IMG/VR virus record: IMGVR_UViG_2667527898_000022
Strand: one strand, 5' to 3'
DNA length: 4,888 bases
DNA from: a virus
Taxonomy: Duplodnaviria > Heunggongvirae > Uroviricota > Caudoviricetes
Shown: positions 96-903 of the stretch, one piece after another
How the letters are laid out: each line of letters begins with the position of its first letter
Numbering within the stretch: the stretch's first letter is position 1
The notes under the pieces: model-generated
The model's input: the letters and a program-made list of their open reading frames with translations, nothing else
The model's database searches: none
What the model was told of the DNA's origin: nothing
Program-made: the position numbers and the translations under genes

Positions 96-105
96 GTGGT
101 ATACC

Positions 106-183
106 CTATAAAATTATCTGTATACAAATAAAACAGTTCAACATCGGATATATAAAGAAAATCTGATGTCTCGCCGCTCTCAT
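106..183 (-). CDS. candidate 25-codon small ORF (MRAARHQIFFIYPMLNCFICIQIIL): leader peptide or small hydrophobic membrane peptide, immediately upstream of the signal-peptide gene
   Basis: ATG at 181-183 (minus) preceded by AGGAG (plus 191-195 ctcct) at 7-nt spacing; TAG at 106-108; stop lies 10 nt before the ATG at 95. Hydrophobic 18-residue stretch. Short ORFs occur by chance in AT-rich DNA, so low confidence. Confidence 0.2.
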   Translation of the reverse strand: MRAARHQIFFIYPMLNCFICIQIIL

Positions 184-198
184 GAGCTTACTCCTGAA

Positions 199-236
199 GA
201 AATTCCGAATTTTAATATAAAGTTTTTCGGAATTTC
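199..236. promoter_or_regulatory. 38-bp palindromic element: perfect 11-bp inverted arms gaaattccgaa (199-209) and ttcggaatttc (226-236) around a 16-bp AT-rich spacer carrying a -10-like TATATT on the minus strand; candidate operator/promoter for the leftward cargo operon
   Basis: Arms verified base by base. The spacer read on the minus strand is aaactttatattaaaa; TATATT is 5/6 to TATAAT and lies ~30 nt upstream of the small-ORF ATG. No good -35 found. Confidence 0.3.
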
Positions 237-391
237 CTTACTATAACGTCGGTGATATCACGTCCGCGAAGGGATATCCGCATTACGACTGGCCTGCCAC
301 TTATGCTGTCTCTTTATTCATCAACAATTTGTATACGGTTACATATTTAATTGTGAAGTTAGTCACAAAAAGAAGAAAGTCAAATAATCAA

Positions 392-421
392 ATTGTGCTT
401 AACTGTTTACATCAGCACAAT
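392..421. repeat. inverted repeat with 8-bp arms attgtgct / agcacaat and a 14-nt spacer
   Basis: Seen directly; on the minus strand the hairpin is followed by a U-rich stretch (uugauuauuugacuuucuucuuuuug), so it could be a weak minus-strand terminator or a protein-binding site. Confidence 0.3.
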
Positions 422-424
422 CTG

Positions 425-446
425 ATGACCATTGAATGACCATTGA
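425..446. repeat. tandem direct repeat, 2 exact copies of the 11-bp unit atgaccattga
   Basis: Positions 425-435 and 436-446 are identical. Function unknown; could be an iterated binding site. Confidence 0.5.
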
Positions 447-578
447 AGGACGCACTAAATTATTTTCAGCAATCCCTCAGCCTACGAAAATTCTGTATCC
501 CCTGAATGTTTAATTTACACTCTTTTTATGCAATTATTCTTTCGACTATAAAAACACCACTATCTCATGTATGACCTT

Positions 579-605
579 GGGGAGCGTGCCGTCTCCCCGT
601 TTTTT
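579..605 (+). terminator. intrinsic-terminator-like hairpin (ggggag / ctcccc, 8-nt loop) followed by g + T6, plus-strand orientation
   Basis: Stem 579-584 pairs with 593-598 (6 bp, 5 GC); T-run 600-605. On the minus strand the hairpin is preceded by an A-run and not followed by U, so it is plus-strand specific. Confidence 0.35.
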
Positions 606-653
606 CGCTTACAGTTTCATGACGACTTTCAGTTTCAGGAATCAGCAGTTACC

Positions 654-680
654 ATGCAATACGAAAATTCTGTATTGCAT
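654..680. repeat. palindrome with 9-bp arms atgcaatac / gtattgcat and a 9-nt spacer; contains the second copy of a 16-bp direct repeat (tacgaaaattctgtat, also at 483-498)
   Basis: Arms 654-662 and 672-680 are exact reverse complements; the 16-mer at 660-675 is identical to 483-498. Confidence 0.4.
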
Positions 681-877
681 CCGCGCCCTCATCTCAATAT
701 CTTTGTCGCCGGATAAAAATAACTATCAACCACAAGTATCATGCTCTCGGTGAGCACGCACTCCCCAGTTTTTTATCTTTGACAGGGGTGAAGGAGGCCG
801 TTGCATCTCCTTTAATTATCATTGCCAGATTATTTCCTCGACCTGAGTATTCTTTATTTAGCCATAGCTTTGTAGCA

Positions 878-903
878 AGGGGCTGGAGCGCCCCTCTTTT
901 TTT
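878..903 (+). terminator. intrinsic-terminator-like hairpin (aggggc / gcccct, 6-nt loop) followed by c + T7 on the plus strand, overlapping the 3' end of the chaperone gene; convergent, possibly bidirectional
   Basis: Stem 878-883 pairs with 890-895; T-run 897-903. On the minus strand it reads A-run, hairpin, then non-U sequence, so it is a better terminator for plus-strand transcripts entering from the AT-rich region. Confidence 0.4.

Follow-up and report, generated by a model that had tools for sequence, protein, structure and literature searches.

The spacer upstream of eib in a lambdoid prophage: a candidate two-layer control region of an immunoglobulin-binding adhesin gene

Introduction

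Why should a tailed phage carry some 800 bp of AT-rich DNA without genes between its tail module and the gene that follows? The question is raised by a 4,888-nucleotide stretch of viral DNA (IMG/VR record IMGVR_UViG_2667527898_000022, Caudoviricetes; the whole stretch is called the window hereafter), in which a spacer of 807 bp separates the tail fibre assembly gene tfa from a gene of which the window holds the 5' end. A first-pass annotation made from the letters of the window had called that gene a cargo gene and had read the spacer as a regulatory hub and/or a source of small plus-strand transcripts. Here we identify the gene as eib, and the spacer is the upstream control region of this immunoglobulin-binding adhesin gene of P-Eib lambdoid prophages. 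As to how the region is organised, the account that we consider rather probable is a non-coding, two-layer cis-regulatory region of the eib moron, in which a multi-input adhesin promoter region is joined to a dispensable distal buffer.

Eib proteins mediate serum resistance, immunoglobulin binding and chain-like adherence in some Shiga-toxin-producing and commensal E. coli, and the expression of eib is strongly condition-dependent. Narrowing the 807 bp to one candidate site for CRP (cAMP receptor protein), three dyads and one invariant stem-loop makes eib regulation directly testable with respect to glucose/cAMP control, silencing by H-NS and the target of the IbrAB regulators. The eib upstream region had already been sequenced and its main palindrome annotated since 2000, and no new class of genetic element is involved. 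The present analysis adds modestly to this, with a conserved putative CRP site, a sorting of the motifs into constrained and unconstrained ones, and the finding that several repeats are dispensable.

The spacer belongs to eib

As read from the open reading frames (ORFs), all genes in the window lie on the minus strand, and the spacer stands between two of them.

1-95, minus strand: 5' end of eib (start codon 95-93; first 31 codons, with an encoded signal peptide), a YadA-type trimeric autotransporter that binds immunoglobulin
96-902: spacer, 807 bp, the gap between tfa and eib
903-1496, minus strand: tfa, tail fibre assembly gene (DUF4376; ORF-191A of P-EibA), last gene of the tail module

Megablast with positions 58-1000 finds matching loci of 94-99% identity in 27 of the 5,426 complete E. 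coli genomes and eight phage records. The homologous loci annotate the left-hand gene as a YadA C-terminal domain protein or as eibA, a full-length homologue of the gene at 1-95 carries the Pfam YadA_anchor domain, and in AF151091 (prophage P-EibA of strain ECOR-9) the gene in this place is eibA, encoding an immunoglobulin-binding protein. Because the megablast loci, AF151091 included, have a YadA-type or eibA gene there, the cargo gene of the first-pass annotation is eib. In all 27 genomes with full-length matches the spacer lies between tfa and eib with no gene annotated inside it, and RefSeq annotates none in the spacer. Its identity is 90-99.6% over these E. coli genomes, the phage records and about 55 metagenome or viral contigs. 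The spacer was never found without eib: there were no matches in 72,556 plasmids, and none in other phage contexts or in species-representative genomes. A search with a two-box DNA pattern returned 11 contigs from viral records and about 50 genuine ones from metagenomes, human gut for the most part, together with a dozen chance matches.

The closest described system is the eibA/C/D/E/F/G upstream region of P-Eib prophages (Sandt & Hill 2000-2002). P-EibA (AF151091) shares its order of genes with the window (J, stf/orf-401, tfa/orf-191, spacer, eib), and the spacer is 92-94% identical to its eibA upstream region, or 94% over the parts common to both. The stem_loop annotated in AF151091 (locus 4174-4211) corresponds to a 38-bp palindrome at 199-236 of the window. 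P-EibA lacks a 115-bp block and an 11-bp duplication, and the window has both, which makes it the long form.

The eib gene is a cassette near the prophage end, on the same strand as tfa, and the GC content of the spacer is 33-45%, against 50-72% in the tail genes. In these respects it resembles the morons of lambdoid phages (lom, bor and type III secretion system effector cargo), which are likewise extra genes after the tail fibre assembly gene in late-operon orientation, with an AT-rich promoter region of their own and a GC content below that of the flanking phage genes. It differs from them in the unusual length (374-807 bp in the different types) and structure of the control region upstream of it. 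Moreover, unlike the classic promoter-gene-terminator moron, its terminator-like sites are on the plus strand and face away from eib, so they do not flank the gene.

A putative CRP site is retained in three upstream types

Three eib upstream types can be distinguished: the window type of 807 bp (or 692/681 bp), a 480-bp type (loci L008 and L010) and a 374-bp type (L009 and L019). Allele counts within the window type refer to 52 distinct sequences, block presence to about 58 loci and orientation to about 75 independent loci. Among the types, blastn aligns only the eib-proximal ~170 bp (96-265), at ~72% identity. Among window-type loci, blocks 96-470 and 679-780 have a single allele (the latter 95-100% identical in all loci), 476-563 and 781-905 each occur as two alleles that reassort (~80% and ~77% identical, respectively), and 564-678 is biallelic or absent. 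A poorly conserved junk spacer, which the first-pass annotation had named as the opposite of its own reading, does not describe 96-470 and 679-780, and describes 476-678 and 781-905 in part.

Beyond the block that aligns among types lies an element that the first-pass annotation did not contain, as it did not contain a fourth plus-strand terminator (749-775) and a tandem duplication (476-625/653-800) to which we return below.

352-367: putative CRP core TGTGAAGTTAGTCACA, a perfect TGTGA-N6-TCACA, centred at 359.5, 264.5 bp upstream of the eib ATG

Nowhere else in the 4,888 bp of the window is the consensus matched with one mismatch or fewer (0.16 matches expected), and the core is perfect in every window-type locus (~59), with invariant half-sites around a polymorphic N6 spacer. 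A CRP-like site with at most one mismatch is also present in every locus of the other two types, its centre 190.5-195.5 bp from the P2 box described below and 262-277 bp upstream of the eib ATG; it reads TGTGATAACCATCACA or TGTGAyAAGCACCACA in the 480-bp type and T(A/C)TGAGCAACATCACA in the 374-bp type, with a different N6 and diverged flanks in a stretch that blastn does not align. None of the chance hits of the two-box pattern has a CRP-like site. The probability of finding such a site in an 11-bp slot is 3-5e-4 per type, the types being homologous and the draws therefore not independent. Because 9-10 of the 10 core bases are kept while the flanks have diverged to ~50%, the retention argues for selection on the putative CRP site. 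Between this site and ~245 there is no TAnnnT hexamer on the eib strand, and the site would therefore lie at about -125 from the first conserved -10-like element. All loci of the 480-bp type have, in addition, a second CRP-like site with one mismatch, TGTGACAGGCATCACT (L008 2859-2874), 90 bp distal to the first and inside a hairpin with a 7-bp stem.

Directly distal to the CRP site is an inverted repeat, of which the first-pass annotation had seen the inner 8-bp arms (392-421).

387-426: inverted repeat ATCAAATTGTGCT / AGCACAATCTGAT, with the conserved core TTAACTGTTTAC (399-410)

The repeat extends to arms of 13 nt (387-399 and 414-426) with one mismatch, and the 42 bp from 383 to 424 are invariant in the 52 distinct sequences. 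The core, TTAACyGTTTwC, is kept in L008 and L009 and the arms are type-specific, L009 having a different 8-bp inverted repeat and L008 a weak one.

The eib-proximal block and its dyads

The part that aligns among all three types contains the following elements; the Shine-Dalgarno sequence, P1, P2, P3 and the -10-like hexamer survive in every type.

96-265, minus strand: conserved block, likely eib promoter and leader
107-104, minus strand: Shine-Dalgarno AGGG
141-113, minus strand: promoter-like TTGAAC-17-GATAAT, from a promoter scan
245-240, minus strand: -10-like TATAGT, which is TACAGT or TACACT in the other types
119-126: dyad P1, TGTATACA (TTTGTATACAAA in the other types), within the spacer of the proximal promoter-like site
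141-169: dyad P2, ACATCGGAT-N11-ATCTGATGT, including the invariant box AAAGAAAATCTGAT (154-167); ATCnGAT-N11-ATCTGAT across types
190-240: dyad P3, made up of the 38-bp palindrome 199-236 (perfect 11-bp arms GAAATTCCGAA / TTCGGAATTTC, 16-nt loop) and a third TTCC-type copy at 190-198

The core of P1 is unchanged in all three types; as a lone 8-bp palindrome it is at chance level, so the evidence for P1 is its conservation. The P2 box is identical in all three types, and its arms make 16 perfect base pairs in L009 (2526-2568) and are shorter in L008. A G/A polymorphism at 146, in the left arm of P2 (ATCGGAT or ATCAGAT), recurs independently in two upstream types, that of the window and that of L009/L019. 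As for P3, the motif AATTCCGA is present in both arms and the right arm, TTTTT(C/A)GGAA, is kept in all types; the perfect left copy is found 12 bp farther out in L009 and has decayed in L008, and a second TTCC-like copy, in direct orientation, is present in every type. Because the left arm shifts or degrades and an extra direct copy is present, the pattern suits an array of TTCC(G/T)A protein sites better than a fixed hairpin.

One family of proteins that might recognise such sites is that of RcsB, whose box is TN(G/A)GA-N4-TC(T/C)NA and whose heteromer half-site is wwTTCykA (PMC7913699, PMC3950696). Indeed, AATTCCGA in both arms of P3 fits the half-site, and the full box occurs with one mismatch at 227-240 of the window and, by eye, perfectly in L009 (TAAGATATTTCCTA). 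Neither the half-site nor the full-box counts exceed those of shuffled sequences, so we take RcsB as a lead only.

In complementation from pGEM, 168 bp of eibG upstream sequence are enough to bring back the adhesion phenotype (PMC13534694), and a basal promoter therefore lies within the proximal block, unless it was supplied by the vector.

The same dyads might act in RNA rather than in DNA. If the eib mRNA started at or beyond ~245, P3, P2 and a GUAUAC pairing would form hairpins in the 5' untranslated region that govern how stable the mRNA is or how well it is translated, for instance by sensing temperature. The eib-sense RNA 245-96 folds better than its shuffles (z = -2.8), into P3 and P2 hairpins and a GUAUAC/GUAUAC stem adjoining the Shine-Dalgarno sequence; the pairing within P2 persists or improves in the other types, as with the 16 perfect pairs of L009, and Eib expression depends on temperature. 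However, the z-score follows from the dyads and is not independent of them, because palindromes fold alike on either strand and as DNA. The moving or degraded left arm of P3 and its third direct TTCC copy fit protein sites better, P1 has no loop and could not form a useful RNA hairpin, and, if the conserved TAyAsT is the -10 element, transcription would start within the right arm of P3. We regard such control at the RNA level as improbable, and take P1, P2 and P3 to be, most likely, operators bound by proteins.

The distal layer is mosaic and carries plus-strand terminator-like hairpins

Every motif listed by the first-pass annotation is present where it had been placed. Measured against dinucleotide shuffles of 96-902, the spaced inverted repeats are above chance (three with arms of at least 8 observed against 0.37 expected, p ~0.008; for an arm of 11 as the longest, p ~0.008), and so are the 16-bp direct repeat (p ~0.002) and the plus-strand terminator-like sites (4 observed against 0.9 +/- 1.1 expected). 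Spacerless palindromes are at chance level, both those of at least 8 bp (5 observed against 3.8 expected) and those of 10 bp (1 against 1.0). Apart from the elements already given, the repeats are as follows.

252-261 and 272-279: spacerless palindromes GTGATATCAC and GGATATCC
425-446, plus strand: tandem 11-mer ATGACCATTGA, two exact copies
483-498 and 660-675: exact direct repeat of the 16-mer TACGAAAATTCTGTAT, the second copy inside a 9-bp-arm palindrome (654-680)
476-800, plus strand: two diverged tandem units of ~175 bp, each beginning with the 16-mer and ending in a plus-strand terminator-like hairpin
564-678, plus strand: dispensable 115-bp block holding T1, the 27-bp palindrome 654-680 and the second 16-mer copy
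578-605, plus strand: T1, hairpin and T-run
749-775, plus strand: T2, terminator-like GG(T/G)GAGCACGCACTCCCC then AGTTTTTT, in the conserved block 679-780
789-820, plus strand: T3, hairpin AAGGAG...CTCCTT then TAATTATC, a weaker terminator site (789-814)
878-903, plus strand: T4, terminator-like AGGGGCTGGAGCGCCCCT then CTTTTTTT, abutting the tfa stop codon (905-903)

Conservation divides this list. The region of the 38-bp palindrome and the repeat at 387-426 are kept among relatives, whereas GGATATCC is disrupted in some of them, GTGATATCAC is disrupted in one divergent upstream type, and the palindrome at 654-680 lies in the dispensable block. The 11-mer duplication is polymorphic, being present in 17 of the 52 distinct sequences and single-copy in the other 35; where present, it makes a plus-strand promoter-like TTGAAT-18-TAAATT (425-461), the top plus-strand score in the scan, which the single-copy variants lack. 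The two units within 476-800 are an old tandem duplication, as 476-625 and 653-800 align with z = 8.4 against shuffles. The 115-bp block is missing from 22 of ~58 window-type loci (~38%), P-EibA included, with ATC microhomology at the junctions, and its alternative allele, 84-89% identical, has a degraded T1 stem. The idea of a regulatory hub thus holds in outline for an eib upstream region whose proximal 170 bp and CRP site are conserved across the three types; the spacerless palindromes, the 11-mer and the motifs of the 115-bp block (T1, 654-680 and the second 16-mer) are unconstrained. A long-range complementarity between 131-143 and 396-408 is not conserved in the other types and was hence taken as chance, and resemblances to sites of LexA, TyrR, Fur, IHF, MarA, OmpR and CpxR, looked at by eye only, were neither convincing nor conserved and none is claimed.

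Such a mosaic invites the view that, apart from a short eib promoter, the spacer is a mostly functionless scar of recombination, filler from the exchange of tail and eib modules in which repeats and hairpins are relics. In its favour, free reassortment is seen among blocks 476-563, 564-678 and 781-905, each of which has two alleles or is deleted; the 11-mer is duplicated in some sequences and not in others, spacerless palindromes are no more frequent than chance predicts, and over J-hok-stf the window is identical to a locus with another eib upstream type. Against it, types whose flanks have diverged to ~50% still share the position of the CRP site and the P1-P3 blocks, 383-424 does not vary in the 52 sequences, and the spacer is not seen apart from eib. 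A scar of this kind is, in our judgement, decidedly improbable as an explanation of the whole.

The four plus-strand sites are predicted intrinsic (Rho-independent) terminators, and no minus-strand intrinsic terminator was found in 1-1100. T2 is weakened in the window by a T at 751; most relatives have G there and a perfect GGGGAG/CTCCCC stem. In the alternative allele, whose block is 77% identical, T3 has an improved stem of 8 bp (AAGGAGGC/GCCTCCTT) with AAATTTTTATT after it, and T4 keeps its stem and T-run with a different loop. The stems and T-runs of T2, T3 and T4 thus persist in alternative alleles while the loops differ; the stems are short, which makes this weak evidence of constraint. 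The hairpin equivalent to T4 is bidirectional in L008 and minus-oriented in L009.

Do these hairpins end a small plus-strand RNA, as the first-pass annotation had proposed? In such a locus a CRP-dependent promoter divergent from eib would start transcription near 400, the RNA would end at T1 (~205 nt) or, where T1 is missing, at T2-T4, and it would act on eib, tail genes or host targets, an arrangement resembling the divergent papI of the pap fimbrial locus. The excess of plus-strand hairpins and the persistence of T2-T4 in divergent alleles are in its favour, as are a hairpin with a plus-strand T-stretch beside the tfa stop in every upstream type, a stem-loop at 387-426 with a conserved loop and type-specific arms, a plus-strand TAGTCA-17-AATAAT overlapping the CRP site of the window, and, in L008, a -10-like AATAAT/TAATAT that puts the CRP site at about -43/-45, a class II-like position. 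However, across the types no plus-strand -10 element stands at a conserved position relative to the CRP site. A covariance-model search of the whole window found no Rfam 15 family in 96-902 even at E <= 1, and the plus-strand folds of 468-606 (z = -0.3) and 780-905 (z = 0.0) are ordinary; 650-777 reaches z = -2.9, which the palindrome there accounts for. Fewer than half of the loci, moreover, have an intact T1, and the putative RNA body, 476-678, is the most mosaic part of the spacer. The likeness to prophage small RNAs and to Rfam small RNA families extends to an intergenic, prophage-borne location and Rho-independent terminator-like ends; a match to a known family, a conserved promoter and unusual fold stability are missing from the eib spacer. 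The proposal of small plus-strand transcripts is thus borne out as far as the terminator-like sites, which are present and partly conserved, and not as far as promoter, family or fold. We consider a small-RNA locus possible, though unlikely.

Coding capacity and phase switching

No ORF in the spacer is conserved among relatives. Phage PhiR5_2 annotates two small ORFs there, one of which is frameshifted by the 11-bp duplication (17 of 52) and the other of which contains T1 and lies in the dispensable block. Small protein-coding genes were ruled out by this frameshift and by the absence of the block from ~38% of loci.

Adhesins are often phase variable, and a 197-bp segment of the spacer has copies of (A/T)TTGTATAC on both sides, inverted as well as direct. 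A promoter segment between TGTATAC repeats (116-129 and 327-341) might therefore invert, or a Dam/GATC switch might operate as in pap and agn43. Yet all of the ~75 independent loci are collinear, with 131-326 in the opposite orientation in none of them, and 1-1000 contains no GATC (Dam) site, against about four expected. Since there is neither inversion nor GATC, invertible and Dam-type switches are excluded as mechanisms, and a phase-variation switch is hardly credible.

A proposed mode of eib control

Expression studies of EibG give the conditions to which such a region might respond. Static cultures contain more EibG protein and mRNA than shaken ones, and both also respond to oxygen and pH; EibG is higher at 37 C than at 23 C, where it is at the detection limit, and higher under microaerobic and alkaline conditions (PMC4352079). 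The unlinked, trans-acting ibrAB genes raise eib expression (Sandt 2002, as cited in PMC7649339). The searchable literature assigns no function to any cis-element of the eib upstream region.

The nearest parallel is the papI-papBA region of pap, in which H-NS covers AT-rich intergenic DNA in the cold and in glucose and CRP at -215 helps to relieve this (PMC11316696). Like the eib spacer, it is a long AT-rich adhesin control region with multiple repeated putative protein sites, and its CRP site lies far upstream of the structural promoter, as does the candidate site in the spacer. Both systems are repressed in the cold, and we also liken them for repression in rich medium; in pap, repression is attributed to H-NS that is displaced with the help of CRP. 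The eib spacer differs in having no GATC/Dam-Lrp switch, no divergent regulator ORF and no sequence similarity to pap, and in being prophage-borne. In the eib spacer, CRP and H-NS are candidate binding proteins.

We propose that the functional layer of the two-layer region, from 96 to ~430, comprises the eib ribosome-binding site and one or two weak sigma-70-type promoters, the dyads P1, P2 and P3 as probable operators, the putative CRP site ~265 bp upstream of the start codon and, beyond it, the conserved stem-loop-like element. The AT-rich DNA would be silenced, probably by H-NS, which would be seen as cold repression; the AT-richness and the fall of EibG at 23 C are compatible with H-NS silencing and not specific to it. 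cAMP-CRP would then open the silenced DNA from a distance, as in pap, together with products of the IbrAB island and perhaps a regulator of the RcsB type that acts at the TTCC(G/T)A repeats. As a result, eib would respond to growth phase, temperature, and surface or static growth. The distal layer, ~470-902, would be lineage-specific, mosaic and derived from the duplicated 175-bp unit, with up to four plus-strand intrinsic terminators; its role is most likely passive, that of a buffer halting antisense read-through from the AT-rich region into the tail operon.

Several points weigh against this two-layer account. On neither strand does a conserved -10 element have the spacing from the putative CRP site that is canonical for class I (-61.5, -71.5, ...) or class II (-41.5), CRP control of eib is absent from the searchable literature, and the 168-bp complementing fragment, on its high-copy plasmid, does not contain the CRP site, which means that basal expression can do without CRP. 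The promoters were assigned from weak matches to the consensus, no commoner than chance predicts (2 against 2.4 expected), and the RcsB-like sites share this difficulty. Conservation within the window type could partly come from recent common ancestry rather than from selection. Finally, the insulator role of the terminators is one that we infer, and their conserved stems are short enough to have been retained by chance (~0.25 for T4).

A more speculative combination deserves mention. The CRP site might drive a divergent promoter for a hitherto unrecognised prophage RNA that regulates eib or host genes, with the stem-loop 387-426 (loop TTAACyGTTTwC) as its 5' part and the tandem terminators stopping it before the tail genes; in a related option, the TTCC(G/T)A and dyad arrays would be binding sites of the ParB-like IbrB, which would make them the first defined cis-target of the IbrAB class of regulators (ParB-like plus PAPS-reductase-like). 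We give this only a small chance of being right.

The tail module and the eib cassette

On the other side of tfa, the window contains two further tail genes.

1508-2950, minus strand: tail fibre gene with collagen-like repeats
3320-4888, minus strand: C-terminal part of the tail tip protein J, with a gap of 369 bp before the tail fibre gene

The tail fibre protein has long collagen-like Gly-X-Y runs, where the local GC content reaches 72%. P-EibA and lambda carry lom between J and the tail fibre gene, whereas the window has a type I toxin locus of the hok/gef type in that position (2951-3330), whose megablast matches in other E. coli are labelled "Hok/Gef family protein". A 27-residue ORF at 3020-3103 on the minus strand, MICITVVLIIWITHRSLCEFRFRIAPF, resembles a C-terminally short Hok, and the sole Rfam match in the window is a sub-threshold match to sok at 3109-3268 on the minus strand (32.5 bits against a gathering score of 59). 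At ~2964-3005, just upstream of the tail fibre start codon (2950), a GC-rich hairpin ACCGCAG...CTGCGGT with an A-run and a T-run was seen by eye; it resembles a bidirectional terminator between J/hok and stf.

In a comparison of 1276-4888 with the prophage of NCTC9112 (NZ_LR134079.1, locus L090), the J-hok region 2951-3330 is 100% identical, and the eib spacer of that prophage is of the unrelated 480-bp type. As the J-hok regions are identical despite the different spacer, a recombination joint lies between the tail module and the eib cassette. The genes downstream of eib, ORF-156 and ORF-60, have no Pfam match and no recognisable DNA-binding domain, and the only PHROG families they fall into are of unknown function; neither gene is therefore an obvious candidate for a local regulator. 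In the inducible phage PhiR5_2 (locus L003, 1-2856), the eib cassette is followed by more tail-fibre-like genes instead of the prophage end, and the cassette is therefore present in more than one phage architecture.

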